From: Eledone cirrhosa
Lineage: Eukaryota
Assembly: GCA_964016885.1 (NCBI GenBank)
Contig: OZ024740.1
Location: 190,340,001-190,404,000 of the forward strand
Direction: 5' to 3'
DNA length: 64,000 nucleotides
Below, in pieces: positions 4,326-52,094 of this stretch. Below the pieces are notes generated by a model. That model worked only from the letters and a program-made list of their open reading frames with translations. It searched no databases and was not told the origin of the DNA. Made by a program: the position numbers and the translations under genes. Position 1 is the first letter of the stretch; each line of letters opens with the position of its first letter.

Positions 4326-4327
<2 letters not shown>
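992..4327 (+). mobile_element. R4/Dong-type retrotransposon, family B, copy 1 (5'-truncated, stops and frameshifts)
   Basis: Starts right after the family A (AAT)n tail and is colinear with 5901-9255. RT motifs QGDSLSPLLF and YMDD; RLE end at 4182; ~22-bp deletion near 1875. Confidence 0.92.

Positions 4328-4380
<53 letters not shown>
4327..4380. repeat. (TAA)n microsatellite, tail/target of the Dong element
   Basis: Direct read of the sequence. Confidence 0.97.
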
Positions 4381-5311
4381 GGAAGAAGGGAAGAAGACGC
4401 ACGAGGTGGTAGAACGTCACGAAATTGCTCCCGTAAGTTTTTTGATTTTTAACATATTTAAATCAATTGTGAAAGAACAATTCTTAGCACAAATGTTGCA
4501 TAAAGGCACCGAATGAGGTCCCATAAAGTTTCGGATCCATATTATATTGTTGTATCGCTCAAATATTCAATTTTGTATTATATATTTTGTATTCAAAAAA
4601 AGAAAATGGTTATAAATGGAACAAAACACCCTCTGTCTACACTATATAGAACAGCGGCAATTTCAATTTCACCAACACCAGAAACTTGATACACTACCTA
4701 TCCCATCACACTAAATATAACGGCAACTTCACCGGCATCATAATAATAATTACTATTATTATTGTCTCAAATTTAAAAAAATGTTTAATTCAAATTTTAC
4801 GGGAATATGTCAACACAAAATATAATGAAAATATATATTAAACATACGAACACAAACTCATAGATACTATATCAGTAACCACAACACCACCACATCCATC
4901 ATCGCCGCCACCACTCATTCAATGCTACTGACACTATTCCCCTGTTAACTTGAGAGAGAAAAGGGAAGGTGGTGGTAGCACTAGACAAGAGAGAGGCTAG
5001 CAAAAGATATAAATAGATTGACTTGGTAACCTTGCCACGGACAAATGTCTACATCAACAATTATGGGACTGCTGGCTCACCCCTTCCTCACCAACAATAT
5101 AAAAAGCCCCGGCACCACCACCGACATAGCCAGCAGCAAAACAGCCAACTACAACAAACAGTATATTATATTATTGTAATGCACTGGGTGATTGCTGGCC
5201 TGGAGTGGAGACAATTATTAATAATTTCATTCTTAAGCCACGCAATGCTCACATTAAGGAACCACTCATGATAATAACAATTTAAAAAAAACAACAAAAA
5301 GAAAACCCCGT
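4381..5311 (+). repeat. ~0.9-kb non-coding leader, copy 1 (repeated at 9285-10283)
   Basis: gacgcacgaggtggtagaa...gaaaacccc occurs twice, each time between a TAA tail and a family B 5' end. Confidence 0.88.
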
Positions 5312-8300: not shown

Positions 8301-9275
8301 CAGGTAAAAGTAACTGCAAAGAAAGAACTGCTACAGAAACTGGCTAAGAAATGGCAAGAAAAGCCTCTGTATGGAAAATACCCAGAGCGAGCTAACAATC
8401 CTGATGTTGACAAAACTTTAACCCATCAGTGGTTGGCATCCTCTGGACTGAAATCGGAGACTGAAGGACTGATTATATCGGCACAAGATCAGTGTCTGCC
8501 AACAAAAAATTACCAAGCCAACATAATAAAAAATGGGTGCAGCCCATTATGCCGTGTATGCAAAAAACAACCAGAGACCATTGACCATATAATTTCAATG
8601 TGCAGTCCTATAGCTCCAACCGAATACCTAAACAGGCATGACAGAGCTGCACAATACATACATTGGATAATGTGCAAGCATTTTGACCTGCCCCATCAAA
8701 AGAATTGGTGGGAGCATCAACCACCTCCCATACTTGAAAAAGATCACATCTCAATCTTGTGGAACTTTAGCATCCAAACAGACCGAAAAATAGATGCAAA
8801 TAGACCTGATATAATATTGAAGGACTTTCAAAGGAGGGTATGCCTGCTAATTGATATGTCTGTTCCAATAGACAAGAATGTATCTATAAAAACATTTGAA
8901 AAATTGAGCAAGTATAAGGACCTGGAGATAGAAATTGGAAAAATGTGGAAATTGAGAACTAAAACAATACCAGTGGTTGTAGGCGCTCTGGGAATGATAC
9001 CTAAGGGGTCTAACGACTACTTATCGCAAATCCCAGGAAACCCGCGTATAGGAGAAATACAAAAGATAGTACTAATGGGAACTGCCCATATACTAAGGAA
9101 GATCCTGTCAATATAAGTACATCACAAGTCTAAACACTAAGGATGCATGTGTGAATATGTGTGTTCTTTCTTGAACATGGCGGACCTTGTTGTCTCTTGA
9201 GGTCACTGGTTGTGACTTGGTGATAACTCGTATAAACATAAAGCAAGATAAATGCAAATAATAATAATAATAAGG
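5312..9275 (+). mobile_element. R4/Dong-type retrotransposon, family B, copy 2 (full length)
   Basis: Structured 5' UTR, single long ORF, 3' UTR 9117-~9256 and a short (TAA)n tail. Confidence 0.93.
5466..9116 (+). pseudogene. Dong/R4 polyprotein (N-terminal domain, RT, CCHC, RLE), 1216 codons with two in-frame stops
   Basis: ORFs 5466-6659, 6699-8150 and 8163-9116 share one frame. Motifs NYRPITCL, WIDYKKAFDS, GIFQGDSLSPLLF, YMDD, CRVC...H....C, RHD and RPD. Confidence 0.93.
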
Positions 9276-9284
9276 ATAATAAAG

Positions 9285-10283
9285 ATAAGGGAAGCAGACG
9301 CACGAGGTGGTAGAAGGTCATGAAATCGCTCCCGTAAGTTTTTGATTTTTAACATATTTAAATCAATTGTGAAATAACAATTATTAGTACAAATATTGCA
9401 TAATCAACCGAATGAAGTGCCATACAATTTCGGATCCATATTATATTGTTATATCGCTCAAATATTCAATTTTGTATTATATATTTTGTATTCAAAAAAA
9501 GAAAATGGTTATAAATGGAAGAAAACACCCTCTGCCTACACTATATAGAACAGCCAAATAACAGCAATTTCACCAACACCAGAAAGTTGATACACCACCT
9601 ATCCCATCACACTAAATATAACAGCCAGATAACGGATATTTCACCACCACCACCATCAATCCCGGCATGATAATAATAATTACTATTATTATTGTCTCAA
9701 ATTTTAACAAAATGTTTAATCCCAATTTTACGGGAATATGTCAACACAATATATATTAAACATACGAACACAAACTCATAGATACTACATATCACAAAAC
9801 CCAGTAACCACAACGCCACCGCCGCCACCACCCCATCCATCATCTTGCTACCACTATCCCATCGCCGCCGCCCCCACTCCTTCATTGCTACCACCACTAT
9901 TCCCCTGTTAACTTGAGAGAGAAAGGGGAAGGTGGCGGTATCACTAGACAAGGGAGAGGCTAGCAAAAGATATAAATAGATTGACTTAGTGACCTGGCCA
10001 CCGGCCAAACGTCAATGCAACAACTATGGGACTGCTGGCTCACCCTTTCCTCACCAACAATATAAAAAGCCCCGGCACCACCACCGACATAGCCAACAAC
10101 AATAACAGCCAACTACAGCAAAAAGTATATTATATTATTGTAATGCACTGGGTGAATGCTGGCCTTGTGCCTGGAGTGGAGACAATTATTAATAATTTCA
10201 TTCTTAAGCCACGCAATGCTCACATTAAGGAACCACTCATAATAATAACAATTTTAAAAAAAACAACAAAAAGAAAACCCCGT
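9285..10283 (+). repeat. ~1-kb non-coding leader, copy 2
   Basis: Colinear with 4381-5311, with several indels. Confidence 0.88.
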
Positions 10284-11693
10284 GACCAAGAAATACCGGG
10301 ATGGCGGCCGGCGGGGAATAACCGTGTCTCTAGGGGAGAACGACCCCTCTAGTCTTGGTTGACACTCGTTCTAGAAGTGGTAACACGAAATGATTACCCC
10401 TTGGCGGATAAGGATAAAACGCGACAAAATAAAGTAAATGTCTAATGATAAAATCTCATACCGGATCGGCCGTCACCCGGGTAAAAAAGGGCCGCGTCCC
10501 TCAGAGAGGAACCAGACTAGGGTCGAAAAATCAGCTAACGGTTCAAACCTTCCCATCACTTCGGAGCTGGAGACCTCCCATAACCGGAATACTCCTACTG
10601 TTGGCCCTCCATGCTCACCACCAAGAAATCCAAAGAAAAACAGAGAAAAATGGTCAAGGGAAGATAATAAAAAAGTCCTTGAGGCTTTCTACACTGCCAT
10701 GTACTACCCATCAAATACATCGAATACAGAACAGACATATATCAACTGGAAAAAGAAACATCCCGAAAACAGAGGCTATATTGACAGTAAGAAACTACCC
10801 AATATACGAAGAAATATTGTAAGAAAAAAGTTACTAACTGATATAGAAATTGATCAGATCAAGCTATTAGCACAAAGTCAGCGAAGGGAAAATGAAACAT
10901 GTGTCAGTGAAAACGAGGTAAACTGTAACACTTCGAACTCCAGGGTTGGGGCGGAATCTCTGGTAACAGAACAAATTAAAGAAAGGATCGAAAAAGTGGA
11001 GGGAGTGCATGCTCATGATGAAACTCCAAATGAATATAATGAGATCGTAAATGATAAAGAAATGAATGAGAATGAACTTGCCAACTTGAAGGATGAAATT
11101 ATGATCGAATGTATGAAAATGAAAGAATCTGACATGGGGCAACGAGACACCCTCCCTAAGATCCAGAACTCCAAACAGAACCAAAAGATAATACACAAGA
11201 CTAACATAATTCTCAAAAACATTATCATCACAAACAAACTAAACATTACTGATTTAAATCATCTCTATCATGCATCGGCTAAAGTCACCACTCACTTATG
11301 TGGAGTGAAGATGAAAAAACAAAGGAATTCCCACAAGAAATCTACTTGGCAAGAGAACATCAATCGCCAAATAAACCTTCTCCGATCTGACATAGAAATA
11401 ATCAAGCAAAAAGTGTCGGCCAAAGCTGCTCGTAGAAGGCGCTTTGAAATCAAGGTCGTCCCGATTGTCATAGGCGCACTAGATACTATCTCAAAGAGTT
11501 TCCAAGGATGTTTAAAGAAGATTTGTCCAGCCCCGCTTTTTGGAACACTACAAAAGGCGTGTTTATTGGGAACAGCAAGAACCCTCCGATATGTCATAAA
11601 TGTCTGAGGCTGTAGATAGCGGCTTGATATTCATATCAACAAACATTCCAGTTAAATAACATCAATGAATGGGAATCAAAGAACATTAATAAT
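10284..11693 (+). mobile_element. Chimeric Dong element: family B 5' UTR and N-terminus fused in frame to the family A C-terminus and 3' UTR (ORF 10438-11607)
   Basis: 10438-11449 matches 5466-6585 with an internal deletion; 11450-11693 matches 730-970. Confidence 0.88.
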
Positions 11694-12024: not shown

Positions 12025-14801
12025 TTTCATTTATTAGCCAAAGGGCCGACATGTAGGGGACAATACAAAGACAGGGACAGTGGGGGTTTACACTAAGGTC
12101 GAGTAAAAGTGCACAATGGCAAGACTAATTTAACAATGAAAATATAAAAACATAAAATAAACTATGCATAAATATAACAAAATAAATTCCCCCATAGGGG
12201 GTGGACGACCCTGGAGTGATTCGGGTACCCCACCAATCCTGAACCCCCCTGCACTTCTAGGGCACCCAAGGAGAGCACCCCTCTCCTCAAGTTAGCCAGC
12301 CTATAGGCGCATGGTCAGAGTAGGCCCATTCACACGAGCCATTCTCGCCACATTCACCCACCTTTTAGCAAATGTACTGGGGGGCAGCACTTCTCTCTCC
12401 ACCCTCACCCTCCTTTCCAGGTGAAACTTGAAGAAGTTGATGAGGGACTGGCCGAAGAGAAAAGTGTCTGTCTTTAGTCCTTTCAACCTGGTCCACCATA
12501 TAATTTCTTTCGCAACTGCCACCAGACAGAGGAAAATGTCCTGCTTTTCCTGACCTAAGGAAGGTGGCGGCTCGATCTTCACCATGGACTCGGCCGATAG
12601 CCGGATTCGTTCCACACGCGACAGTAGCTGTTCGACATAACTCCACAGGTCAGTAATGCACGGATATTGGACAAGTGCGTGCAGACCGGTTTCGTCGTTC
12701 TGTGCGCATCTTGGGCAGGTCCGTCTGACAGCACTTCCGTACCTGTAGAGTTTATCCCGAACCGGCATGCCCCCCGGTAGCACTGCCAAGCGAGGGATTT
12801 CTGGAAATTGTCCATCGTCCCCGGCTCAAAAGTCCTCTGGTACAGACTGGTCAGTTCGACTTCGTCGATGCCCAAAGCTTCTCCGAGTGCGTCATCGCAC
12901 TTGCCCACCACTAATCCTCTATAGAACTCGAAAGTGGAAGTTCCACTGATCGCATTGCCCGCTTGGTAGAGGGCAGTGAGTGCCTGGCAACATTCCAGGT
13001 GCCAGTCACCCAGTCTCGGTTTCTTCTTGACCCAGGACTGCAGCTCAGTCAAAGAAATGAGCTGCGGAAAGGCCCGTCTGATAAACGGCGACCACACCTG
13101 TTCACCATTGAGGCAGAATATCTGGAGATGTCGCAGCCTCAACGCATGTCTGCGCATCATTAGCCACGGCATGCCCAGCACTCCGCGTAGAGGGTGCTGG
13201 CAGCAGATGGACCGCCTCACCAACGGAACTTGTCCCTTCCACAACAATTTGAAGAGGAGCCGTTCCAACTTGACGAGGCGCGGACGGGGGCAAGGCACGA
13301 CGGTTAGGCGGTAGTAGATGACGGACGCGATGTACGCATTCGCCACCTCCGCGCGACCTTTCAGTGATAGCTTGCTCCCAGCCCATTTTTAGGTGGGACT
13401 GGCTACTCTGCTCGTTACCTCGTCCCAATTCTTTTCCACCTGGAAGTCTGGACCTAACCAAACCCCGAACAACTTTACCGGTCCGTCCGTCCAGCGCCCC
13501 ACGACGCTGTTGGACGGCATGGGCCTGCCTCTCCAGGTTCCGAGCTGCAAGCCCACCGACTTTTCCGGGTTAAGTTTGGCTCCTGTCAACCTTTCATATT
13601 CCTTCAATAAGGTGCCGACCACCTCGATATCTGAGGTGTTCGACACCATCACGGTGATGTCGTCCGCATAAGCAGACACCGCCTTTCCACGTCCCGGTTC
13701 GAGCGGGATGCCCTGCAAAGTCTCCAGCTTCCGCAGTAAAGGCTCGAGAGTCAATACGTACAGAAGGGAAGAGATAGGGCACCCTTGACGGACCGATCGG
13801 GAGAGCCGAAATGGTTCCGAGAGGTGGCCATTAACCTTGACCACCGAGCGTGTGCCGCTGTGCATTGCAACGATCCAGCTTCTAAAGACAGGGCCGAAGC
13901 CAGCTGCTTTGAGGACAAACTCCAGATACCGATGGTCGACCCGATCGAAAGCTTTCGATTGATCTAAATTGATCAGTGCCCCACCGAAGCCAGGTTTACA
14001 CCCTACCCTCTCTATGATGTATTGCATGAGGTGGAGATTGTCGTGTATGGACCTGGCTGAGATTGCGCAAGTTGCGCCTCCCTAACCAAATCCTCGACTA
14101 CAAGCGCCAATCTCTTTGCTAACACCTTGGCCAAAATCTTAAACTCTGTGTTGAGCAGATTTATGGGCCTGAAGTTGTCTAATGTATCCCTCTTGTTCTC
14201 GTCTTTCCTTATCAGCGTCACCACTCCCCTGCTCACAGAACTGGGAATACTCCCATTCTGCTGCCAGTTGCAGTAGAGTGCTTCGAGGAGTTCGGAGAAC
14301 AAGTCTGGCATATTTACGTAAAGCTCGTAGGGCAGGCCATCCAAACCGGGTGACTTTCGCCTCATGCAGCCGACAAGGGCGTCCTGAATTTCGGCTGAAG
14401 TAATCGGCCTTTCGCAGCGCTCAGCGTCGACCGTCGAGGTGCGCGGCAAGCCGTCAAGGTAGGGTCTGAAATCCGCTACTCTCTCTGACTCGCCACTCTC
14501 CCTGAACAACCGAGCAAAGTGCTGGCGAAAGGCCTCACACATCCGCATGCAATCGCTTATCTCGTGTCTGTCTCAATCCACCAAAGACCGAATTGTGGTT
14601 TTATTACCACGCTGCGGCTCCGCCACGCGGGCCCATCGAACAGCATTAGTTCCCTCGTTTCTCAGCGCATGCGCCTTAGCGCTGACAATGCAACCTTCGT
14701 GTTTGGAGTTGAAGAAATGGTCTAATGCCATTCTCGCCGCTAGCACGTCAGTTGCGATGCCACTACAAATAGCCTCGTCTAACTTATCTACCAGCTCCCC
14801 C
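12023..14801 (-). mobile_element. L1/Tx1-clade LINE, 5'-truncated ORF2 (RT + C-terminal zinc finger), frameshifted
   Basis: KSPGLDGLP, NFRPINLLNTEFKILAK, DQSKAFDRVDH, RQGCP, YADD and CPRC...ET..H motifs; minus-strand 3' end aataaatgaaatcat(tat)n. Confidence 0.9.
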
Positions 14802-16520
14802 TGATTTCTTTATTAACCACAAGGGTTTACATAAAGTAGACATTAAAGAGAGTGCAGGACAATACAGGACGGTACAAATGGGCATTCCTGCCTGTAAAAA
14901 GCAAAAACAGGATGTAACAAAAAACAACAATGACAAATTCCCCAATAGGGGGGTGACTTCGGAGGGACATTTGTGGAGAAAGCCCAGTAAAAGGCCACAG
15001 TGACCCTGACCACCAAGGCAAGTGCCCTCTCCCAGTTTTCCACCTTTAATTTACAGATACGTACTCAGAGTAGGCCCATTCACTCGGGCCATTCTTGCTT
15101 CTCTCAACCATCTTTCAACAAAATGCTGGGAAGAGAGCACTTCCCTCTCTACCCTGATTTTCCTTTTCAAATGAAATGTGAAAAAGTTAATCAGGGCATC
15201 ACCGAAGAGGTAAGTCCGCGTCTTCAGCCCTTTCAAACGTGTCCACCATACTATCTCTTTCGCCATGGCCACCAGACAGATAAAAACTGCCTGCCCTTCC
15301 CGGCTAAAGGAAGAGGGCGGGGCAATCCTCACAATGGGCTCAGATGATAGCCGGATCCGTCCTACACGTGACAGCAGGTGTTCGACATAAACCCACAAGT
15401 TAGCAATATTCGGACACTGGAAGAGTGCGTGCAGGACGGTTTCGTCGCCCTGCGCACATCTCGGACATGCCCGGCTGACGGCACCTTCATGCCTGTAGAG
15501 TTTATCCCGAACTGGCAAGGCTCCTCGGTAGCACCGCCAGGCCAGAGATTTCTGCATCTTGTCCATAGGTCCCGGCTCGAAAGTTCTTCCGAAGAGATTG
15601 GCTAGTTGATTTTCGTCGACGCCTAGTGTAGTGCCGATCGCCTCGATGTGTTTGGCGTTCGACACTACTACGGTGACATCGTCCGAATATGTTGACACGG
15701 ATCTTCCGCATCCTAGTTTACGCCAGATCCCCCTCAACGTCTCCAGTTTGTGCAGTAGTGGCTCGATAGTGAATACGTACAAGAGGGACGAGAGGGGACA
15801 TACTTGGCGGACCGAAGCATGATGTTGAACGGTTACGAAAGGTGACTGTTCACTCTCGCCACAAAGCAGATGTCGCTGTGCATGGCAGCGATCTAGCCTC
15901 TGAACACGGGCCCAAAGCCAGCCGCCCTCAGGACTGCCGCTAGGTAACGATGGTCGACCCTATCGAAAGCTTTCGAGTGATCTAAATTGATCAAGGACCC
16001 ACCCGTGCCAGGTTCCCTAGATACCCTCTCTACGATGTATCGCATGAGGTGTAGGTTGTCGTGGATGGATCTGTCGTGAATGGCGCATGTCTGCGTCTCT
16101 CCCACCAGACCACCAACGACAAGCGCCAACTTCTTTGCTAGCACCTTGGCCAAAATCTTGAACTCTGTGTTTAGCAGAGTTATGAGCCTAAAATTATCTA
16201 TGTTTTCCCCCTTGTTCGGATCCTTTCTCAGCAGCGCCACCGCTCCTCGGCTCACAGAGCTGGGAATTCTCCCGTGCTGTTGCCAGTTGCAGTCGACGTC
16301 CGTCAAGAAGCCTTCGAACAAGTCTGGCATTTTTACGTAAAAGACTATCCAAACCAGGCGAGTTAGCCCTTGTGCAGCCAGTCATTGCCTCCCGTACTAC
16401 GGCGGCTGTTATCGGCTTCTCGCAATACTCCGCCTCAGTGGCCGAGAGCCGCGGCAGTCCGTCGAGGTAGACACTAAAGTCCATCCCTCGATCCGGTCCG
16501 CCGCTGCCCCCGAACAGCTG
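14802..16520 (-). mobile_element. Second L1/Tx1-clade LINE fragment (related subfamily) with internal deletion
   Basis: DHSKAFDRVDH, YSDD and CPRCAQGDETVLHALFQC. About 0.74 kb present in the first copy (12875-13612) is missing at ~15627. 3' end aataaagaaatcag. Confidence 0.88.
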
Positions 16521-16539
16521 AGTGTACGAAATCCTATGT

Positions 16540-16593
16540 AACTTTCCAGTTGAATAACATCAATGACTGAGTCTCAAAGAATAATAATAATAA
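16540..16593 (+). mobile_element. Extremely 5'-truncated Dong family A 3' end plus (AAT)n
   Basis: actttccagttgaataacatcaatgactgagtctcaaagaataataa matches 923-970 and 32808-32860. Confidence 0.75.
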
Positions 16594-22506: not shown

Positions 22507-23401
22507 AATTTTTCAATGTTTATTTACATACACGACCTCCTTTCCAACACAAGAGACATACAGATACATATGTATATATTGATGCACAGTGAGGTACATC
22601 CATTATGTTATTTTTGTATGCCAATTTATATTCAAAAATTTAAATCGTATTAAAACAGAATCAAAGCAAAATTAAAATTAAAATATAACATCGGCAGTTT
22701 ACGAAGATAATGCAAGAGGATAGTTTGTTAGTCAGTTGTAGTACTTATTGCATGCAATGGTTACACGGGGCATGCACGTGTGTCTTATTTATATATGATT
22801 ATTTAGTTACAGAAATCAGCTGGTTACCTCCCCTCACGCATTAACTCCCCTTAATCACACACATACTTCCGGAATATAAAACGATGTAAGTTCCCGCAAC
22901 AAAAACAACCTGCTATATAAAATTGGATTAACGAACACTGAGCCGCAACAAGCTGTAATAATTTAACTTAATACATCAAACATACGATACTGAATCATTG
23001 TTAATTATGTGAAGGACATATAAAATTTATATTACGTTTCCTGAATTGTTGAAATGGTGGTGTATACAAAAACCATAACATTATTTTGCTTCTCATTTAT
23101 AATATTTATCTGCACACAAGCTTCTTTATCATACACAAAAAATACTTTACCACTACAACCACCATAATACTCTTGATTACCCGCTTAAAGTGCTTGTATT
23201 GCATATAACACCTAGCCCTATAATAATCATATATAAATAAGACACACGTGCATGCCCCACGTGTAACCATTGCATGCAATAACTACTACAACTGACTAAC
23301 AAACTATCCTCTTGCATTACCTTCGTAAACTGCCGATGTTGTATTTTAATTTTAATTTGGCTTTGATTCTGTTTTAATATGATTTTAATTTTTGAATTTA
23401 A

Positions 23402-25163
23402 ACAATGGGGAAATACGGGTGAAGTTATTGAAAGGTTCAAAGATATCAAGGAAAACAAGGATAAACAATTTATTCAATTTGATATGAATTCATACTATAC
23501 CTCTATTTCCCCTATCCTATTAAATAAGGCACTAATCATGGCCATGAACTATAGTGACCTGACTAGACCCCATATTGATGTCATACTTGCGGCCTGTAAA
23601 ACCGTAATCACCTTTGAAGACAAATTATGGACCTGCAAGGATACGCAAAACAACTTCTACATAACCATGGGATCTAGTGACTCGGCACAGGTCACGGATT
23701 TGGTCGGCCTATATTTACTAAACGAAATCCATAAGGACCTTCCATACCTCAACGGTGGTTTTTACGGCGATGTTACACTTCTAATTATAGACTATAAAAA
23801 ATTCAATATACAAAGAACTAGAAAACTATTGCACAAGACTTTCAAAAACTATAACCTAAGTATCACCATAGACATAAACACTAAAAACGTTAACTTCCTA
23901 GACGCCACCCTCTACATAGACTCAAGGATATATACACCATTCCATAAACCTAACGAAAAACTCATTTACGTAGATACCAAGTCTAACCACCCTAGATCTA
24001 TATTAAACTCTATCTCTAAGGGAGTATCGAAAAGAATCTCTAATATATCCTATGACGTAAACATATTTAGCAAAAACTCGCAATATTATAATCAGGCATT
24101 AGCTAGATCAGGCCATAATAAGGAGATCGAGTTCCTACCTACATAAACACATAGCTACATACTTATTTCGCACAATATGTCCATGAGGAAAAATAGTAAT
24201 AAGAATAGCAACCACACACACATTAATACGAAGGATGCCAACAAACGTAACCCACACCACAGAAGTTACCATAATACCATAAACGGAAACAACTCACCAG
24301 ACATAAAAACAAAAATAGAAGAAGAAATAATACATTTTTCAATCCTCCTTTCAATCTAAACGTCTCTACCAACCTACCTAAGGCTTTCTTCTCACTCCTA
24401 GATAAACACTTCCCATCTGGCCACAAGTACCATAGCCTTTTAAACAAAAACACAATTAAAATCTCCTACTATAGCACGCCTAACATAGCATACCACATAG
24501 CTAGTAGCAATAAAAGAAAAAAATAATTCTTACTTCCAACAAACTAAATCACAACAGGAGGTAAACCTTCAAAATAACATGATATCAACTAACCCTGATA
24601 ACAATAGTAATAATAGTAATAGCACTAATGTAAGCAATAACGCTGGGAACAACGACCCCCATAACCATAATCCAACCGCTACTATCCAGACTTCTACACA
24701 ACATAATAACCGGCAGGCTAACATACGAAATAATTGTAACTGTAGATCTAATAGAACCTGCCCTTTAGATAAAAAATGCTTAATCAAGGATATCATATAC
24801 TCATGCATCGTCACAACTAGCAACTCCTCTGAAACCTATATAGGCTCTATTTCAAACTGCTTCAAAACCAGATACAATTCGCACCTCCATTCTTTCAAAA
24901 AACACAGTCTAGCCAACTCCACTTCACTATCTAGCTACATACACTATATAAAAACTAAAAATAGATCTTATACACTTAAATGGGAAGTGATAGATAAGGC
25001 GCCATCGTACAAACCACCTAATAAATTTTGTAACCTCTGTCTACTAGAGACCCATACTATTATCTTCTCAAACCATAATCTGCTTAATAAACGATCAGAA
25101 GTGTTCGCGTCATGCCAGCACCGCTTCCGACACTCCTTCCAAAACTTTAAACCCAATATATAG
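23402..25163 (+). pseudogene. PLE reverse transcriptase + GIY-YIG endonuclease (disrupted)
   Basis: FIQFDMNSYYTSI, MGSSDSA, FYGD (YRDD degenerate), NFLD, SNHP; CNC...CPL...C, IIY...YIG, CNLCLLE, LLNKRSE and CQH. Confidence 0.88.
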
Positions 25164-27049: not shown

Positions 27050-30000
27050 ACAGGTAGAAAGAAACGATTATGAGGAAGGAAAATATTTGTTTTCCATTTT
27101 TTTGTCTCTCTCTCTCTCTCTCTTCTGGGTTAGAAAATGATTAAGACGAAATGTTTTGCTTTGTGTGAAGTGTTAATGTATTAGTTAATTTATTTATTAT
27201 TTAATAATGGCATTTATTTATCTATTTATATATTTAATTATTGTTTATTACCGGTTTCTGCATTTATATGTATTATCAAATGATAGTGACATGTATTAGT
27301 GTGGTGTCGCACATGTTAAACAGAAGGTGCAGAAAGAATAATGTTATATGCAAACAAGGTTTAAGAAATGAAAAGAAACAAGAAAACGGAAAAAAAACGT
27401 GCATAATGTGGAATGTAAAAAGTTAACGTGGAAGAAAAGTTAATGTTATTTACAAGCACAGTCATTGAAGTTAAGCAGTTCAAAATGTGTTAATATAGCA
27501 AGAGTGTTTAGTTGAACCATGGTTCCGTGAAGGAGGCAAATGGTGGACTGTGGTTTGATATGATTTCCCTTTTTAGAGAGTTAATATGCAGGGGAAGCAA
27601 TTCTTGCTGGGTGATATTTAATTTATTTAAGAAAAAGGATTAGGTAGGGCGTGAGTGAGGTAACTCTAGTAAATGTTTGATGGTTTGTTTCAGTTTTAGA
27701 TAGGTCCGAATTTTAGGACATTGACAACTGGTTGAAATTTATTAATGAAATATGTTTACTTATTGTTGCGTTGGATGAAAATAGCGTTGTCTATGAATTT
27801 GTAAATGGGGGAACATTTTAAAGTTTGGAAGTTGGTAGAGAGCACAATTGGCGATATGTTCACTAAATGCAATCTTTCTGTATTCCTGTATTTTAATTAA
27901 TACGTTGACGGAGGCTGTTTTTTGTCTGTCCTATATAGTGCTCTAGACAACCTGAGCAAGTCAAAACATAGATAAGGTTTTCAGATGCACATGTAAAGTT
28001 GTGTTTAAGTGTGAAACGTTGTCCTTGTTTAAAATGTAATGTTCAACCTTCTATTAGATGTATGCATATCCCACAGTTGGGCCTACGGTATTTTGTTACT
28101 GTAGTGTTTATTGTGAAGTTCTGTTGGATTTTGGCTTGTGTGAGGATGTTTTTTATGGATTTGGGTTGTCTTTTGCTCTTTATGATGTTGTGTGTTTGGA
28201 GGATATTATTCATTCTTGGGTCTCTTTTTAGTAAAAGAATGTTCTGGAGTATGGTACCGAATGCCTCATTGTTGAGGGGGTTGTATGTGAAGATGTATGG
28301 TAGAGGTTTTTTGTTGCGGTTCACTCCTGGCTTTGGGGTGTCTGAGTTCCTGGATGTCTAGTTTTAGGGCACGTTGGAATCCATTGGTGATAAGGGATGG
28401 TAGGTAATTTCTGCTGATAAGTGTGTTTTTTAATTCTTCTAGTCGGGTGTAGCATGTGTATTTATCCGAAACTATTGTGCAGATCCTTCTTGCTAGGTAA
28501 TTGCCATTTTGGAGTGTCTAGGGTGGCACGAGTTGAATGGAAGGTATTGTTTGGAGTCTGTGGGATGTAGTATATGTCTGTTTCTATTTTGTTGCTTGTT
28601 TTCTTGATGAGGATGTCGAAGAAAGGGAGTTGTTTATGGCTGTAATCCATTGTAAATTGTAAGTTTGTGTTGAGTCCATTCAGAAGGGTTTTAAACTCAA
28701 ACAGTCTATCTATACTTTCATGCTAGAGGATGAAGCAGTCGTCCAGATATCTCCTCCAGTTCTTTTCTATGTGTTGGTAGAAGTGGTTGCCGTATTTGTC
28801 TAGAACTTTGCGGTAGAGAATCGTTTCCAAAAATCCCATGACAAGGTTGGCGTATGAGGGGGCCACTTTCGTGCCCATGGCAGTCCCAGATTTCTGTCTC
28901 TAGTATTTGGCATTGAATTCGAAGAAATTGTTTTCCAAGATGAATTTGAGTCCCTCCAACACAAATTTTTTAGGATGCGCTGTGGAAGTTCACTAGGGAA
29001 ATTTTCCATCCATAATTGTATTGCCTCTATACCTAGGTTGTGTAGGATATTGGAATATAAATTGATGACATCAAAGGTTACTAGTAGGGTATGTCCGTTA
29101 TTGAGTGTTGTTGGGAGGTGGTTGAGCATGTCAAGATCGTCCCTTATGAAGCTTTTTATATGTTTAAGGAAAGGTTTAAGCAGATTATCTAGGAAGTTGA
29201 TATGAGATGGGTTTCACATGTGGAGCCTGCTATTATGAGTCTTAATTTAAGGTCATCACGAGGGGCTATATTGATGCAAACGTCTGTGGTTTGCTTGCAG
29301 GCCCTGCCTATTACTTCCCTTTTGTGTGTCTTGGTGATACCGTAGAAGAGGCTGGTTCTACTTTTGAAATTGGTGATGTAGTTGTATTCCTTGTCTGTAA
29401 GGCCTTCTTTGTAAAGGGTTGTTAGGGATTTTAGGTTTCTCATTATTTTCTGTTGTGTGTAGTGTTGGGCCTTTTCATAATATGTTTGGTTTTCTAGAGT
29501 TGAGAGTACTAGAGTTGTGTAATAATCTGTCTCTATAAGGACTACTGCACTCCCTTTATCTGCAGTTTGATTGTTAAGATTTTGTAGTTTTTTAGACTGT
29601 TAAGACCATTCCATTCTTTTTTGTTTAGGTTTTGTTTTTATATATGTCTGTGTAGATTGTGGTATGGGTAATTAGTAATGTGTTCGCAGAATTGATCGAG
29701 GAATTTATTCTTGCCTTTTGGTGGGGTGTAGTTGCTTCTATTTCTGGCTATTGAATCATCCTCATTGTATTTGTTGTATAGTTGTTGGCTGAGTCTTAGT
29801 TTTCTACAGAATTCTGCAATATCTTCCTTCATTTCGGGGTAGTTTGGTTGTTGGGGAGTTGGTGTAAATTTTAGACCTTTGGAGAGTATGTTGATTTGGT
29901 CTGTTGTTAATTATTTGGAGGTTAAATTGACAACTTTCATTGCGTTTTGTGTCTCCTGTGTGTTTTGTGTTATATTGTGACCATATTGTGACCATGTGTG

Positions 30001-30450
30001 CTGTGTCTAAAAAATGATTACGGAAGTTGTGATGGCTGTTGAAGTTTGGATGTCTCTTATAGTTGTATTGGCTCCTGCTGTTGTTGTAAGATGGTGTGTA
30101 GCTGTGGTGGTTGTTGAGTTTAGGTTGTATCGTGCGGTTGTATTGAGCCTTGCTGATGTTGTTTTAGGGTGTGTAGATTTGATGGACGTGGTTATAGGGT
30201 GTGAATTTGTGGTGGTTGTTGAAGTTGGGTTGTAACGTGTGGTTGTGTTAAGCACTGCTGTTGTTGTAGGGTGTGTAGACTTGGTGGTAGTTGTAGTAAG
30301 GTTGCCTTGTTGGTTCATATTGAGTCCTGTTGTTGCTGTTATATGGTGTGTAGCTATGGTCGTTGTAGTGGTTAGGGTGTTTGGTGTAGTTATATTGTCC
30401 CCTGCTGGTGTTGTTTTAGTAGGGTGTGGTAAGTGGGGGAGTGTAGATTA
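27046..30450 (-). mobile_element. Penelope-like element (Neptune-like), decayed RT + GIY-YIG with Thr-rich N-terminal repeats
   Basis: LVTFDVINLYSNI, GTAMGTKVAPSYANL, RRYLDDCF, LPFFD, RPNCGIC and FTCASENLIYVLTCSGC..HYIGQT; 3' UTR runs into (TA)n. Confidence 0.88.
27246..27283 (-). ncRNA. Minimal hammerhead motif, U3-A8 core
   Basis: tcat TTGATAA tacat ataa atgca GAAA ccgg TA ataa; stems I and II each carry a mismatch. Confidence 0.55.
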
Positions 30451-30455
30451 GTGTA

Positions 30456-32188
30456 GATATAAAGTTTATGACAAAACCATTAATCACTTGTTCTACATGG
30501 ATGACCTGGAACTATTTGCAAAAAATGATGAACAATTGCAAGGGCTATTATCCACTGTGGAGCAGTTCAGTGATGATATTAAAATGGAGTTTGGACTAGA
30601 AGAATGCGCCAAAACAACGTTCACCAGAGGAAAGCTGCTGAAAAGTTCAGACATTAATCTTGATCGGGGGAACGTGATAAGAGAACTTGATCAAGAGAAA
30701 ACTTACAAATATCTAGGTGTTTGTGAAGGAGACGGAATCAAACAATCGACAATGAGGGAAAGGATAAGGAAGGGATGTTACCGCAGAGTAAGAGAAATCT
30801 TAAGAACGGAATTGAATGCAAGGAATAGGATCGATGCCATAAACACGCTTGCCATACCAGTAGTAACCTACAGTTACAATGTCATCAACTGGTCAAGCAC
30901 AGAGATCCGTAGGCTCGATACAAAAATTCGAAAATTCTTAACCATGCACAGAATGCATCACCCTAATGCAGATACAGATAGAATATATCTCCCTAGGAAA
31001 GAAGGAGGACGTGGGTTAATCCAGTTAGACATTGCGTTGAAAACTGCAACAATTGGATTATCTACATATCTAAGGGAATCACATGATTGGATTATCAAAC
31101 TCGTTTTGAAACACGAAAGCATCAAAAGATCATACTCCATTACAAAAGATGCACAAAGATACAGTAATGGACTACACATTTCAGAAGTCCCATTTACTGC
31201 TGAAATGGAAAACACAGAAAAAGCAAAGCAGGTAAAAGTAACTGCAAAGAAAGAACTGCTACAGAAACTGGCTAAGAAATGGCAAGAAAAGCCTCTGTAT
31301 AGAAAATACGCAGAACGAGCTAACAATCCTGATGTTGACAAAACATTAACCCATCAGTGGTTGGCTTCCTCCGGACTGGAATCGGAGACTGAAGGACTGA
31401 TTATATCATCACAAGATTAGTGTCTGCCAACAAAAAATTACCAAGCCAACATAATAACAAATGGATGCAGCCCATTATGCAGTGTATGTAAAAAACAACC
31501 AGAGACCATTGACCATATAATTTCAATGTGCAGTCCTATAGCTCCAACTGAATACCTAAACAGTCATGACAGAGCTGCACAATACATACATTGGATAATG
31601 TGTAAGCATTTTGACCTGCCCCATCAAAAGAATTGGTGGGAGCATCAACCACCACCCATACTTGAAAAAGATCACATCTCAATGTTGTGGAACTTTAGCA
31701 TCCAAACAGACCGAAAAATAGATGCAAATAGACCTGATATAATACTGAAGGACTTTAAAATGAGGGTATGCCTGCTAATTGATATGTCCGTTCTAATAGA
31801 CAAGAATGTATCTATAAAAACTTTTGAAAAATTGAGCAAGTATAAAGACCAGGAGATAGATATTGGAAACATGTAGACATTGAGAACTAAAACAATACCA
31901 GTGGTTGTAGGCGCTCTAGGAATGATACCGAAGGTGTCTAATGATTACCTATCGCAAACCCCAGGAAACCCGCGTATAGGAGAAATACAAAAGATAGTAC
32001 TAATGGGAACTGCCCATATACTAAGGAAGATTCTGTCAATATAAGTACATCACAAGTCTAAACACCTAAAGATGCATGTGTGAGTATGTATGTTCTTTCT
32101 TGAACATGGCGGACCTTGTTGTCTCTTGAGGTCACTGTTTGTGACTTGGTGATAACTCGTATGATCATAAAGCAAGATAAATGCAGCT

Positions 32189-32242
<54 letters not shown>
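30456..32242 (+). mobile_element. Dong family B, copy 4 (5'-truncated at the RT YMDD region) plus (AAT)n tail
   Basis: Colinear with 7528-9255; several stops; tail 32191-32242. Confidence 0.92.
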
Positions 32243-32244
<2 letters not shown>

Positions 32245-32868
32245 CACCTCGTCCAGACTCACTATAAGGGCTGGAGACATGTTGTGATGGACGGGGTGAT
32301 CCATTGGCACCTATGCAATGTAAACAATTTACCACATTCTGAGAAGTGGTATGAGCATAAGCAAGAGTCGGTGATAGAAAATGATCAGGTGATGGTGCTA
32401 TGGGATTTTAGGATACAGACGGACAAGAAACTGGAACACAATAGACCAGTCCGGGTGGTTTTGGACAAGTAAAAAAGATCGTGCCTGATTGTGGGTGTGG
32501 CCTGCCCATTCGACACTAGAGTGCAAGAGAAGCAGAGGGAGAAAATTAACCGATACAAGGACTTAAAGTGGGAGGTAAAAAGGATTTGGAAGTGCCTTGA
32601 AGTCAAAGTGGCCCCGAGTGTCGCATTAGGTACTATCTCAAAATGTTTTCAGGGATGGTTAAAGAAAATTGACAACGGCACGCTTTTTGGAACGCTTCAA
32701 AAGGCATGCTTGCTGGGAACGGCAAGAATCCTCCGATACATCCTGGATATCTGAGGCTTCAGGTAGCCACTTGATATTCAGGTAGTGGCTTGATATTCAT
32801 TTCAACAAACTTTCCAGTTAATTAACATCAATGACTGAGACTCAAAGAACAGTAATAATAATAATAAT
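32243..32868 (+). mobile_element. Dong family A 3' fragment abutting the family B tail
   Basis: Colinear with 370-970; short duplication in the 3' UTR (caggtag..cttgatattca twice); (AAT)n end. Confidence 0.9.
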
Positions 32869-35818: not shown

Positions 35819-36802
35819 CGTTTCTGAATTTGTTTAGCAAGATTCTTTACCTGAAAACGTGTGTTGAAACCGATATTGTTATACTTTGGGAGGGTCATGT
35901 TGCCAATAAGAAACACACGCTCCACATTCTTTCATTTCAATTTATTATAAATAAAATTTAAAAATTTAGGAATTTATAAATTTCCGATTGGTTTGTTGGT
36001 TCTACAACCAGACGATTGTTCATATATTGTCAAAGTTCTTTCGTTCTATTTTAGCATGTTAGTAGAGTACAGATGATTCTTTACTATCCTGAAGCTCTCG
36101 CCAGTGTTCATTTATCCGTTCTCCTATACTACGAGCTGTCTCACGTATGTACACTATATTCTAATCTCTATATTGTCTTTCAGTACATCTTATGCTATAT
36201 ACTACATTTCTAGTTGTACAGTTAATATTGGGGCTTAGTTTACAGATTATACATTTCTTATCTATACAGGGAGGTCTTTAAACATGGTATGTATCGCTAA
36301 TAAGTGTTTTTATGGAGGTACCTGGTCTTCTACTATCTTAATATTGAGATTATGTTTATCTAGGGCCCTTCTGAATTTGTAAGCTAATTCACATCTAGAG
36401 GATAGTAAAGAATCCTATGTACTCTACCAACATGCTAAAATAGAACATAAGGGTAAATTAGAGAACATAGAAATACAAATAGAATCTACACACAGAAAAG
36501 ACGCAATGATTAGACAAATCAAAGAGGCAATAAACATAAATGAACTCCAACCAAAATTAAATAGAAAGCATGAATGGAATAGCAATATCACAACTTACAA
36601 TTAAGGACAAAATGAAAACACAGTTACACATAGAACAAACGACCAACCATTAACATGTAAATAAACAAATAAATAAACAAATATAAACACACACCGACAC
36701 CCGGATGTAACACAAGCGCAATCTAAGCACAAAACACACACAACAACAAGATGGCCTAGGACAGAACAAAGGAGAGGCACAAAACAAAGAAAATAATCAA
36801 CA

Positions 36803-36845
36803 GTCACTGAAGAGGTCACATAACGTGTGGCGAAAGAACTTTGAC
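36803..36845 (+). ncRNA. Minimal type I hammerhead ribozyme motif in the 5' pLTR
   Basis: gtca CTGAAGA g gtcaca taacg tgtggc GAAA gaac TT tgac. Confidence 0.72.
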
Positions 36846-37550
36846 AATATATGAACAATCGTCTGGTTGTGGAACCAACCAACCAACCGGAATGTTATAA
36901 ATTCCTAAATTTATAAATTAATTCATAATAAATTGAAGTGATAGCAACTGGTATGTGTGTTTCTTATTGGCAACATGACCCTCCCAAAGTATAACAATAT
37001 CGGTTTCAACACACGTTGTCAGATAAAGAATCTTGATAAACAAATTCAGAAACGAAATATCGTAAGCCTTAGCCGGGCTAACAAGATACTGAAAACTACC
37101 ATGTTCTGTTGTCTACAAAAAACAATAACATCTTGACAACTACAGTTCATAATAGAATGTGCTTCGTCCCGAGTTTACACCAACACCATCAACATCGATG
37201 TAAGAAGATTACAACTCACCAAAAAGCAAGCAGATAGGCTAAAACTAACACTAATTATAAACATTATAAAGAAGATTTACAGAGAATTAAGTCAAGAAAT
37301 AACTAAGATCACCACACCAAGAGAAAAACTGATGTTTATAAACGTTATATGTCTTGAAGAAAAGTACATTGTTCAGGAATGTGACAAGCACTTTAACAAG
37401 AAACTAAAATGGCTCAAACAGATGAAACTAAATCAAGATACTTTAGAAAATATCGATAGATTTCCTGAGAAAATCGACGGTCTAAATATGGCCGACATCT
37501 CATTAACAGATGAATTCAACAACAACAACACAAATTTATACGACAACACT

Positions 37551-38327
37551 TCAAAGAAGTCTGTCCGCTCGGTCGGTCGGTTGTTGACCCATATATAATG
37601 ATGCAATAGAATCGGCTTCATATTGCATCATTATATCTGGGTCAACAACCGACCGACCGATCGGACAGACTTCTTTGAGCAGTGCAATATCGCCTTTTTT
37701 AATATTGCACTGCTCAAAGGAGTCTGTCCGGTCGGTCGGTTGTTGACCCAGATATAATGATGCAATAGAATCGGCTTCATATTGCATCATTATATCTGGG
37801 TCAACAAACGACCGACCGACCGGACAGACTTCTTTGAGCAGTGCAATATCGCATTTTTTTTATATATATGAAAAAAATAAGCGACCAACCGACCATTAGG
37901 CCAGCTGATCGCTATTTCTTTTTATATATATTTAAAAAAGGCGATATTACACTGCTCAAAGAAGTCTGTCAGGTCGGTCGGTCGGTTGTTGACCCAGATA
38001 TAATGATGCAATAGAATCGGCTTCATATTGCATCATTATATATGGGTCAACAACTGACAGACCTACCGGAAACTCTTCTTTGAGCAGTGCAATATCGCCT
38101 TTTTTTTATATATATAAAAAGAAATAGCGATCAGGCGGCCTAATGATCGGTTGGTCGCTTATTTTTTTCATATATATAAAAAAAGGCGATATTGCACTGC
38201 TCAAAGAAGTCTATCCGGTTGGTCTGACGATTGTTGACCCAGATATAATGATGCAATAGAATCGGCTTCATATTGCATCATTATATCTGGGTCAAAAACC
38301 GACGCACCGACCGGACATACTTCTTTG
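37551..38327. repeat. Concatemer of four ~125-bp palindromes joined by palindromic linkers (period ~243 bp)
   Basis: Units start at 37551, 37714, 37956 and 38201; ~57-bp arms around the loop gaatcggcttca. Confidence 0.95.
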
Positions 38328-40897
38328 GTGGAAAAAGAAATAGAAACAACATAATTAACAATAACAATAGTAATAGTACACATAAAGCAGCAGCCTGGAA
38401 CTCTACCTTTTATAATCCTTCCGATAAGTCTTTCGAACTGCGACGAGTCCACGCCACGATTTAGCTTTTAACAAACACACGCCATTGCCGTTGCAGGTCG
38501 ATGAACAAACAGAAGCACAATTTAGTATAGTTAGATCTAAACTTAGAACAATTATAGAACAGTATAGTAAGAAGCAAAATAGAATCGAGGTCCAGAAACT
38601 GGGAGAAAGATCTGCAAATGACTCACGTAAGCTCATGCAGCGCTCGTATAATGCATATATTGCATGCTTTCCAACAGACAAGTCTGGCAGAATGTCGGTT
38701 GACAGTCGGTCAAACTCATGCAACCCCACATTACTAACACAAGAGAAGTACCACCACAAGAGCATGAGGATAAGGAAAAAACCCTCAATGCCCATATGAT
38801 GATGTGGACAAACAGAATGCAGCCCAACAAAAGGACTGCCAACAACTTCCAGGCCTGGAACAATGACGTGCCAGTGTTGTATGGGCTTCTAAAAGACCAT
38901 AAAACGAGCAGTGACCCTGTCACAGGACCACCAACACGGCCAGTCTGTGGAGCTAACATTGCTAGTAACTACAGACTTTCCTACTTCCTCTCCCTGATCA
39001 TACGCCCCATCATTGAAATGTCCCCAGGTATATGTGACAGCACGGAGGACCTCCTCAGCAGAATCCATCTATTGACGAGTATTTTGCTGTGGAGATATGC
39101 GTAGAAATGATCAGTGAGAGTAATGTTGGATTCCGTGGGATAGATACCAGTGAGCAGGGACTCCTACTTAAAATTACTTATAGTAATAATTATCTAGACA
39201 CATATGATCTTAGCAACATGTAGCCTACAAGACCAGCAAGAGGCAGACCACCTAACATTACCTCAATGGCTAAGAAAACCCACACAGATAGAAGCAACGG
39301 GTAGACCAGAGCTATGCGGACCCCCGAAAGCCACAATGAACTAAAGAAAATGATTGCACATGCGGTGGGTATAAAATTAACCCTTAAGGAACATATGTTC
39401 AAATTTAATGGAAAAGCATATGCCCAAGAGGAGGGCCAGCCATTGGTGTTAGCTTGCAGGTGACATAGCTAACATATCCATGGTATGGGGGGACAATAGA
39501 CTTAAAATTAAACTTAAAGAACAAATAGAAGACAGCAACGTCTTAACCCTGATAATGTACTCCCGCTACGTTGATGATATAAACAACGTAGTAAATACTC
39601 CCCCACTAGAGAACAGTCAGAAATTAGAGAAAAACACCATGGAAAGCATCCAACAAATAGCTAACTCCATCCACCAGAGCATTAGAGTTACTATAGACAA
39701 CCCAAGCAAACACGCCAACCATCGATTACCTGTACTAGACACAGAGCTCTGGTTAGATACTATCAATAACAAAAAACAGATCCTCCATTCCCATTATGCC
39801 AAACCCATGACTTCCAAATATCTAATCCACCGAAACTCAGCTGTTTCTGACCACACGAAATCAACATACTGATTGCGGATTTGGTACTGGTGATGAGAAA
39901 CGTGGCCCGCATGTGCAACCCCAAAGAACTAGAGAGACACATACAACACTTCATCCACCGTATGCAGTTCTCTGGTTACAATCAGTGAGATAAGATCAGA
40001 GTATATAGTGGAGCCAGAACCAAATGGGGGAAAATGGTAAATAATGATACAAATGGGACCTGCCCCTTGTATAGGAGCAAATTTTGGAATATAATAGAAA
40101 GAACTAGGAATAAGGTTAATAGAATAAACTCATGGTATGATAGCAATAAATACTGGAGTGTAATGTTCATCAATACAACTCCTAGAGGTGAATTAGCTTA
40201 AACATTCAGAAGGGCCCTAGATAAACATAAACTCAATATTAAGATAGTAGAAAGACCAGGTACCTCCATAAAAAAATATTATTAGCAATAAATACCCTTT
40301 TCAAAGACCTCCCTGTATAGATAAGAAATGTATAATCTGTAAACTAAGCTCCCATATTAACTGTATAACTACAAATGTAATATATAGCATAAGATGTACT
40401 AAAGGACAATATAGCGATAAGAATATAGTGTACATAGGTGAGACAGCTCGTAGTATAGGAGAACGGATAAACGAACACTGGCGAGAGCTTCAGGATAGTA
40501 AATACTCATCTGTACTCTACCAACATGCTAAACTATAACATAAGGGTAAATTAGAGAATATAGAAATACAAATAGAATCTACACACAGAAAAGACGCAAT
40601 GTTTAGACAAATCACAGAGGCAATAAACATAAATGAACTCCAACCAAAATTAAATAGAAAGCCTGAATGGAATAGCAACATCAGAACTTACAATTAAAGA
40701 CAAAATGAAAACACACACACACATAGAACAAACAACCAACCAGTAACATGTAAATAAACAAATAAATAAACAAATATGAACACACACAGACACTCGGATG
40801 TAACACAGGCGCAAACTAAGAACACAACACACACAAAAAAACAAGATGGCGTAGGACAGAACAAAGGAGGGGTACAAAAACAAAGAAAAGAATCCCA

Positions 40898-40940
40898 GTC
40901 ACTGAAGAGGTCACATAATGTGTGACGAAAGAACTTTGAC
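40898..40940 (+). ncRNA. Minimal type I hammerhead ribozyme motif in the 3' pLTR
   Basis: gtca CTGAAGA g gtcaca taatg tgtgac GAAA gaac TT tgac. Confidence 0.75.
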
Positions 40941-41082
40941 AATATATGAACAATCGTCTGGTTGTGGAACCAACCAACCGGAAATTTATAAATTCCTAAA
41001 TGTATGAATTTAATTTATAATAAATTGCAGTGAAACACTGGTGCGTGTGTTTCTTATTGGCAACATGACCCTCCCAAAGTAT

Positions 41083-48323: not shown

Positions 48324-49081
48324 TAAACGGAATAGAAAATGCTGACAAATTGTTCACAGTTGAAAAATGGTTTAATTAGGAATAAAAGAGTATTAGTGAT
48401 TGTATGGGTTAGTATTCAGTTGTGGTTTTAAGTTTTTAAGTTTTTACCGGTTGCGCATTTCTAAATGCTTTTCAAAAATAATTTTGAGATAGAGTGTCCG
48501 TGCTGTTTGCTCTGATCTGATTAGTTTGGAATTCTACCTGTTTTTATGTTAAAAAAGTGGCTCCAATTTGCAAAAATTCTTGTGGTCAAAACAATTTTGA
48601 TTGGTCGGTAGAGGTCATGTGAATGTAAAAAATTGATTTTGCGCCAAGAGTGTTTTTATGTTAAAAAAGTGGCTCCAGCAAAAATTCTTGTGGTCAAAAC
48701 AATTTTGATTGGTCGGTAGAGGTCATGTGAATAAAAAATTGGTTTTGCGCCAAGATTGAGAAATGACTCTTTTACTGAAAAAATCGAATAATGTACACCA
48801 TTTTACCAGGGGGAAAAAAATACTGGTCCACCCACACACACACACACACACGCACACATATATATACACACACACATACACACGCGTACATCAACATACA
48901 AAGAGACTTATATATACACACACACATACACACACGCACTTCTCCGTATAAGACAAAAGCTGAAAAATATCTTTTGACATGCTAAAATGCCCCCCATTGC
49001 TTTCAGACACATTCTTACTGACCATCCCTGCCACCATGAATTACTCTGCTATACACACACACACACACAAACACATACACA

Positions 49082-49738: not shown

Positions 49739-50829
49739 TTATTAAAATTGATTTCAATATGTTTATATGGCGAATCTCAGAATAATTTACTATTTACTCA
49801 AGTATTTCATTCACCCTTTAATAATGCAGTTATGAAGTTGCTTCATTGTGTAATATGAACTGCAATAATATATTTGTTTTTTCGGGATAATGTTCCACTC
49901 ATCTTCATCTGATATTATCGGGTTTAGATGAATTGTATTTCTCTAAATTTTACCTAAACAATTCATCAGTGGATATTTGCTAAACTACAAGTATTATATC
50001 GTTCAATACTTTCAATACGTATATAGAATTATTACGTAAATATCTGAGTCGATATGAATTGAACATGTACAGGATTGTGTCATTGTGTCCTGGCTGCTAT
50101 GGTCTTTTTCATAGGGGATGTTAGTGGGGAAGAATAAAATTAAGATTTTCTTCCATATTCATGAATATAGTTTTGGATATTCTGATGTAAATTAAAATAG
50201 AAAGATGTAGAGATAAAGAAAGTGCATGTAATATGACACGTAACTGTTTATGCTTAAAGGTGTATTCTCAATTGTTTATCCCATTATTTGAAGATTTCAC
50301 AGCTATATTTAGAGTTTAGATTAAAATAATATAAGTTACATTTAGCTTATGTAACATAATTAAAGTTTCGTTAAACTCAAAATTAGTTAAAGGCCATACG
50401 TCATGATTGTTGGAATTTCAACGTGTCTCTTCGTTCATGTATATCAGTTGATAAAATTGCAATTTAGATCTTAGTCATGAATTTAATTTTGTTATAAACA
50501 AATTTTTCAATTAATAATTTGCGCTGTCGCTTATGATAAACTATTTAGTTGCTGGAATTATATGAAGCCTATTGCGAAATCATTCAAGATTTGGTTATGT
50601 GATGAATATATAAATGAAACTAAGTAATTTAAGGCATATCATTCCAAGATTTACTCCCTAGTATTAATGAAATCATGTTTGGAAGCAAATAATATGCTTT
50701 CAAATTTGTGCTAGTTGTTCTTGTAACAGTTATGCCCCATATATTCAATAGGGCGTTAATACTGAAGAGTTCTTTCAAATGAGACAGTCCTTGTCCTGTA
50801 GACCTCATTGCTATGTAATAAATATGGTT

Positions 50830-52094
<1,265 letters not shown>

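Follow-up and report, generated by a model that had tools for sequence, protein, structure and literature searches.

Anatomy of the palindromic array

The window analysed here is a stretch of 64,000 nucleotides from the genome of Eledone cirrhosa (contig OZ024740.1, positions 190,340,001 to 190,404,000). Inserted in it at positions 37551–38327, with no strand assigned, is a palindromic array of 777 bases which consists of four telomeric hairpins (A1–A4, all on the forward strand) and three linkers, and which is traced below to the NS1 end of a parvovirus, without any coding remnant. The left arm of hairpin A1 (37551–37702, loop at 37609–37620) begins exactly one base past TGCACTG, which is also where two further endogenous copies terminate. 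In linker 1 (37679–37716, no strand assigned) the subterminal hairpin B is gone, and what remains are stem ends and a T run. Both arms of hairpin A2 (37702–37860, loop at 37768–37779) carry the motif TGCACTG and CCGG/TCGG tetramers. Linker 2 is formed by a copy of B on the reverse strand (37861–37931), running against the viral NS1 sense, and linker 3 by a copy on the forward strand (38107–38177), running in that sense; when aligned to B of the endogenous locus L020, the former scores 104 reversed and 80 forward, and the latter 98 forward and 68 reversed. Between the two lies hairpin A3 (37932–38106, loop at 38014–38025), the centre of a 91% palindrome of 159 nt, about which both copies of B are mirrored and which resembles the bridge of a tail-to-tail dimer such as the one found in locus L060. 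The right arm of hairpin A4 (38178–38327, loop at 38259–38270) stops 1 nt before the point that would mirror the left end, and shares the three nucleotides TTG with the host sequence.

An earlier note, made from the sequence alone, had described the array as a concatemer of a ~243-nt dumbbell in which loop A keeps one orientation in all four units, whereas hairpin B is deleted from linker 1 and oppositely oriented in linkers 2 and 3. The array and its arrangement were confirmed, albeit with a monomer of 245–246 nt rather than 243 nt. The 12-nt loop A is identical in all four hairpins, in one orientation (starts at 37609, 37768, 38014 and 38259; start-to-start spacing 159, 246 and 245 nt), and B of linker 2 aligns to the reverse complement of B of linker 3 with a score of 155, against 111 in the same sense. 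The nearly fully paired rod predicted for the monomer was likewise recovered when the B-centred unit was folded (z −25.1, with none of 200 shuffled sequences as stable; z −15.7 for the A-centred permutation). The array had been judged to lack coding capacity, and indeed no remnant of NS1 or VP was detected in the window. The array gave 32 matches in Rfam, all under the gathering score and nearly all to generic miRNA-like hairpins.

Support for the array in sequence data

The four hairpins provide eight arms, which over 57 columns differ from each other by 10.5% on average and carry private differences. Such divergence argues against the reading that a shorter palindrome was wrongly assembled into units of false number or orientation. 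The same is true of short-read contigs from one sample (runs X1–X3), possibly the assembled sample itself, which match linker 1 with no differences and also match linker 2 with its B, and among which the right host junction was found in independent contigs of the three runs. On the other side, among the longest pieces listed for the short-read data there is none that bridges the left junction, linker 3 or the array as a whole; the bin 38024–38087 has zero depth in all four short-read runs, and the array is barely covered in the RAD-seq run X4. One contig of run X3 has a joint that skips 37694–38101; behind it may be either a shorter allele or an artefact of the assembly graph. Taken together, we consider an assembly artefact very improbable.

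Integration site

The array interrupts a degraded Penelope-like retroelement on the forward strand (36399–40979, GIY-YIG domain at 40272–40535), which has lost ~640 nt at the insertion. The element contains long direct repeats (36399–36884 and 40492–40979) that are 89–93% identical. None of the 24 paralogous Penelope copies contains a match to the array, so that it cannot be regarded as a normal structural part of these elements and is, as previously supposed, unrelated to the element surrounding it. Alignment to uninterrupted copies, which the earlier note had suggested, defined the junctions: in the 21 Penelope paralogues, out of 24, that were measurable, the flanks of the insertion lie 609–751 nt apart (median 639 nt). 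The array has therefore replaced that stretch of Penelope sequence. Since both flanks correspond to the Penelope element in 21 of the 24, the array is integrated into chromosomal host DNA.

The left junction is blunt, whereas the right one displays a 3-nt microhomology. There is no target site duplication at the array, in line with the earlier note, and a deletion is found instead. A deletion without target site duplication fits end joining; integration of AAV is described in the available part of PMC12031541 as proceeding via NHEJ. The insertion thus looks like the outcome of end joining at a break and not of transposition.

Homologues of the array and the identity of hairpins A and B

When the unit was searched against the whole 3.0-Gb genome, as had also been proposed, two further matches were retrieved: one on contig C18 (83% identity over 155 nt) and one on contig C4 (77% over 75 nt), counts that for a DNA search are lower bounds. 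Both are located directly downstream of Parvo_NS1 hits, at 2 of the 29 NS1 loci, and thus at the ends of endogenous parvoviruses. A 28-mer comprising the A loop occurs four times in the genome when up to two mismatches are allowed, always within the array (control 0), and a second tight pattern, run genome-wide, returned the same three loci only (control 0).

These results bear on the null model put forward in the earlier note, namely tandem amplification of a MITE with B inverted by recombination between its arms. The inverted-repeat anatomy is all that a tandem non-autonomous DNA transposon of the MITE or fold-back type has in its favour. Dispersed copies were not found in the 3.0 Gb (again a lower bound, albeit two patterns uncovered nothing further), the insertion caused a deletion without target site duplication, and both homologues abut NS1; we have rejected this origin, which appears hardly credible. 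Homology of the unit to the NS1 end of endogenous parvoviruses of the same genome supports the parvovirus-type termini and tetramer iterons proposed previously as well as the capture of a concatemer of a tiny hairpin-ended replicon, and makes both a novel fold-back element and a rod-like circle unnecessary. We have little doubt that the array was derived from a parvovirus. No coding copy was recovered that would represent the exact parent of the array; the closest is 83% identical.

The endogenous copies disclose what A and B are. Locus L022 (contig C4) has the layout hairpin–VP(PLA2)–NS1–B–stem–A loop, all within ~4 kb. In L060, a hairpin with TGCACTG, tetramer repeats and the shared loop core forms the axis of a 1425-nt, 99.5% palindrome, which is a tail-to-tail dimer of the NS1 end. 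Since an A-like hairpin occupies the axis of this viral dimer, A is the NS1-end telomere. Hairpin B follows the AATAAA signal of NS1 in L020, L022, L053, L054 and L055, and is missing from the young dimer L060, as it is from linker 1. Lying between the NS1 poly(A) signal and the telomere in these relatives, B is subterminal and not a viral end; its earlier interpretation as a flip/flop terminus is therefore not supported, the real telomere being A. Locus L061 is a 99.87% head-to-head dimer, and together with the tail-to-tail palindrome of L060 it indicates that integration of palindromic replicative forms does occur in this genome. Searching the genome for a second mini-concatemer with the telomere of the young L060 type recovered L060 only.

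The manner in which individual copies end is variable. In L053, L054 and L055 recognisable viral sequence stops just after hairpin B and the T run, while L057 ends at ~2300–2370 in an A run placed right after AATAAA, like a retrocopied transcript.

The parental virus family

In 13 of the 26 long loci (L022 at 947–4908, L053, L054, L057, L060–L062, L067–L069, L072, L242 and L244), all of them endogenous copies, VP immediately precedes NS1 and shares its strand. The order NS1-then-VP was found in none, and the 13 loci with neither order are partial or belong to other lineages; the 26 loci are not all independent, several being near-identical. Both telomeres are seen in two loci, L022, which measures ~3.96 kb from hairpin to hairpin (~4–6 kb in Parvoviridae), and L060, so that the VP–NS1 order is not an effect of permuted concatemers.

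The NS1 proteins of the family contain an SF3 helicase domain (PF01057, E 6.9e-16), and their profile matches the structures of AAV Rep and parvoviral NS1 (E 3e-11). An HFH motif at residue 83 and the Atlas look-alikes, which are Rep nickase clusters with scores under 0.8, only suggest that an HUH nickase domain may be present as well. VP is a single 522-aa frame combining PLA2 (PF08398, E 1.3e-13) and capsid regions; its best sequence match among solved structures is 6wh3, the capsid of Penaeus monodon metallodensovirus (PmMDV; E 5e-8), and its top Atlas clusters are parvoviral VP1 proteins (0.93–0.94).

Protein homologues of the family (lengths 301–961 searched) are six in number, unnamed and 40–78% identical, and the family is known here from these and from integrated copies alone. 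No relatives were retrieved from IMG/VR with one NS1 or an NS1 alignment as the query, or from JGI metagenomes with the NS1 alignment. A loose telomere pattern recovered 121 stretches from IMG/VR, none of them related to the family by tblastn or blastn. The family does not share the parvoviral layout with NS on the left and VP on the right, in which NS comes first in monosense genomes, and is placed in no described genus; the parent of the array possibly represents a new viral lineage.

Several copies are very young and have integrated in palindromic form, tail-to-tail or head-to-head (L060 at 2580–4003, L061 at 1459–4587, L062 at 1665–7026 and L242 at 5921–6229); their proteins are ~99.7% alike where compared, which suggests recent entry into the germline. 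More distant NS1 lineages, 25–48% identical to the family helicase, are represented by L056, L058, L059, L063, L064, L065 and L070 and by second NS1 hits in L053 and L054; some adjoin inverted repeats of their own, e.g. L063 (4656–4789 and 6236–7781). In the region G000:C12:9072000-9086000, which includes L053 and L054, NS1 hits of two lineages, at least four in all, are clustered within ~10 kb. Short coding pieces of NS1 and VP are tandemly amplified inside the endogenous copies L066 (2730–3529) and L068 (6400–8311).

Orientation of the telomeres and position of the viral terminus

The hairpin at the VP end has TGCACTG and the tetramer repeats in common with the NS1-end hairpin. Its loop, compared in 12 rows, is oriented one way in five and the other way in four, three being unclassifiable; at the NS1 end, L022 and L060 have loop A in forward orientation and L020 has it reversed. 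Flip/flop telomeres, a feature of hairpin transfer, are consequently present at both ends of the parent family, and the fixed orientation of A in the array is no family trait. A comparison with MVM, with one fixed and one flip/flop terminus, had been drawn previously; it does not hold for a family in which both telomeres occur in both orientations, and simple arithmetic gives p=1/8 for four loops of four being alike under random flip/flop. B, in turn, shows the alternation to be expected for the body of a palindromic concatemer, with only two copies informing it.

Five VP-end hairpins have kept their outer arm. Two of these (L232 and L239, each on a contig of its own) have their end exactly one base past TGCACTG, whereas the other three run past this point as mirror copies, for ~10 nt in L226, ~70 nt in L228/L242 and kilobases in L231. 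The left end of the array is also one base past TGCACTG, and the right end lies 1 nt further in, or up to 4 nt given the microhomology; the probability of such a coincidence of ends is ~3e-4 by a rough, post hoc estimate. Judging from these sequences, the position one base past TGCACTG may be the resolved terminus and a putative nick site of NS1. The coincidence of the array ends with viral ends seen elsewhere suggests that the inserted molecule was likely a processed linear duplex with viral termini. L241/L245 (contig C37), considered as a further exact viral end, were dropped because they have no viral context.

Origin of the array

The array is a self-complementary molecule from one genome end including the telomere, as in snap-back defective interfering genomes. 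Its likely origin is a gene-less snap-back mini-genome, a replication concatemer of which was trapped at a break in the host DNA. In the scenario we propose, a strand made inward from the telomere would have folded back at B, possibly with the aid of an inverted, degenerate version of the stem motif, which is present upstream of B in some relatives (clear in L022, 10/11; weak in L054 and L055, 8 and 7; absent in L020 and L053, 5). By copying its own telomere, the folded strand would have given rise to a telomere–B–telomere molecule that lacked genes but had origins at both of its ends. NS1 of a helper virus could then have bound the tetramer repeats, nicked one base past TGCACTG and amplified the mini-genome in trans by rolling-hairpin synthesis, after which a linear duplex with two resolved ends would have been end-joined into a germline break. 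B may have been lost once from linker 1, either before or after insertion. For AAV, replication of 3' snap-back genomes with Rep in trans is described in the available part of PMC8235507.

Only two variants are shared among the arms of the array, compared with 1.08 expected (P=0.29). Sharing at the level of chance fits a simultaneous origin of the arms and gives no sign of later tandem duplication, yet it is no proof of fold-back either; the variants concerned (R3+L4 and L1+R3) had been considered as such a proof and were dropped. Several observations speak against the mini-genome. Pure fold-back doubling mirrors the loops, so that by our own derivation four A loops pointing the same way around alternating B copies require additional terminal resolution or recombination; three bodies correspond to no standard monomer, dimer or tetramer form; and three of the five retained VP-end outer arms overrun the proposed terminus. 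No episomal form of the mini-genome was seen.

The loops of one orientation are accounted for directly if a viral telomere–B–telomere piece integrated and the array then grew by unequal crossing-over, during which A stays fixed, with recombination between the arms accounting for the inversion of one B and the loss of another. Long palindromes are unstable, which counts for such growth after integration, as does the joint in run X3 that skips 37694–38101 if it marks a shorter allele. However, the eight arms contain no left–left or right–right shared variants, the two that are shared being at chance level, and separate duplication, inversion and deletion are needed in addition to a two-ended snap-back molecule as the starter. 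We hold this course of events to be doubtful, though still worth considering.

A mini-genome that never replicated is invoked by another explanation, in which free viral telomere fragments were stitched together at the break by end joining or recombination of the host. AAV ITR concatemers arise by host repair according to PMC12031541, linker 1 resembles a broken join in which a T run is fused to a stem end, and several endogenous copies (L061, L062) have scrambled junctions. Linkers 2 and 3, on the other hand, are one precise stem–B–stem structure and its mirror image, and repetition of the same junction by independent ligation is not to be expected; this explanation seems unlikely.

Returning to the replicated mini-genome, the reading in its fullest form is that the array is what the germline has kept of a parvoviral mini-replicon of ~245 nt, without genes, which replicated by means of helper NS1, that it records the nick site of this enzyme, and that its parent belongs to an undescribed capsid-before-NS1 lineage still entering the germline as replicative-form dimers. 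For this composite claim we see the chances as evenly balanced.

Comparison with known parvoviruses

The closest parallel is provided by the AAV 3' snap-back genomes (PMC8235507, in the part available), which are likewise self-complementary, come from one genome end with its telomeres, form dimers and depend on Rep supplied in trans. The array differs in that the turn-round lies within ~100 nt of the telomere, so that no gene or promoter is left, in that it turns at a natural subterminal hairpin, and in that a concatemer with four telomeres has been fixed in a host genome; moreover, its parent is not a dependoparvovirus. Endogenous densoviruses of Echinococcus (PMC6880638) resemble the present case in that a single invertebrate genome harbours over 20 integrated parvoviral loci, which have ITRs and are often concatemers. 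In the accessible text of that report the concatemers are head-to-tail and gene-containing, with VP downstream of NS1, whereas here the integrated forms are palindromic, the array is gene-less, and VP lies upstream.

Imperfect terminal palindromes with internal inversion both ways, a ~4-kb genome, an SF3 domain in NS1 and PLA2 in VP are shared by our family and the Parvoviridae as outlined in the available section of PMC12297876. The layout given there has NS in the left half and VP in the right, unlike the VP-then-NS1 order on one strand seen here, and the two different hairpins of our family share TGCACTG and tetramer repeats, in distinction to the telomeres described there. PmMDV (PMC11357303, as far as available) is comparable in its short stretch of capsid similarity, ~4 kb genome and invertebrate host. 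It is without PLA2 and has 416-nt ITRs, whereas the family has an N-terminal PLA2 and unlike left and right hairpins. The lineage resembling Swazi bat megaparvovirus (PMC13426907, part of the text) also has a PLA2-bearing frame upstream of NS1 and endogenous copies, but its capsid frame still follows NS1, whereas in our family only the telomere does.

Parvovirus-related sequences are present in many invertebrates (PMC5013282, available part). In the portions available of PMC11357303, PMC9896142 and PMC11822035 no VP-first parvovirus is mentioned, and neither a VP-before-NS1 parvovirus order nor a telomere-only endogenous concatemer was found in the main texts, some of them partial, of the literature searched. 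Reports of endogenous parvoviruses from cephalopods or octopuses were not found in the literature searched either.

Endogenous parvoviral elements are usually found via their proteins, and a telomere-only insertion would pass as an odd palindrome or a MITE; the array shows that telomere-only parvoviral fossils exist and are readable. If our interpretation is true, it would represent a natural minimal origin of ~245 nt, with a terminus one base past TGCACTG common to both viral ends, and snap-back defective genomes would be known not from AAV preparations alone but also from a wild, invertebrate-type parvovirus, in the germline. Copies of the family retain telomeres in both orientations and palindromic dimers, structures that are seldom obtained for uncultured parvoviruses.

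Other repeats in the window

The remainder of the window also contains repetitive sequences. Positions 198–11607 and 30452–32472 are occupied by tandem, head-to-tail copies of a non-LTR retroelement, which has a reverse transcriptase and, at the C-terminus, a restriction-like endonuclease, and which terminates in (TAA)n. Additional reverse transcriptase elements, all degraded and including other Penelope-like fragments, are found at 12301–16559 and 28800–30447 on the reverse strand and at 23367–25163 and 50752–51162 on the forward strand, and a 108-nt unit is present twice, with 93% similarity, at 48539–48755.
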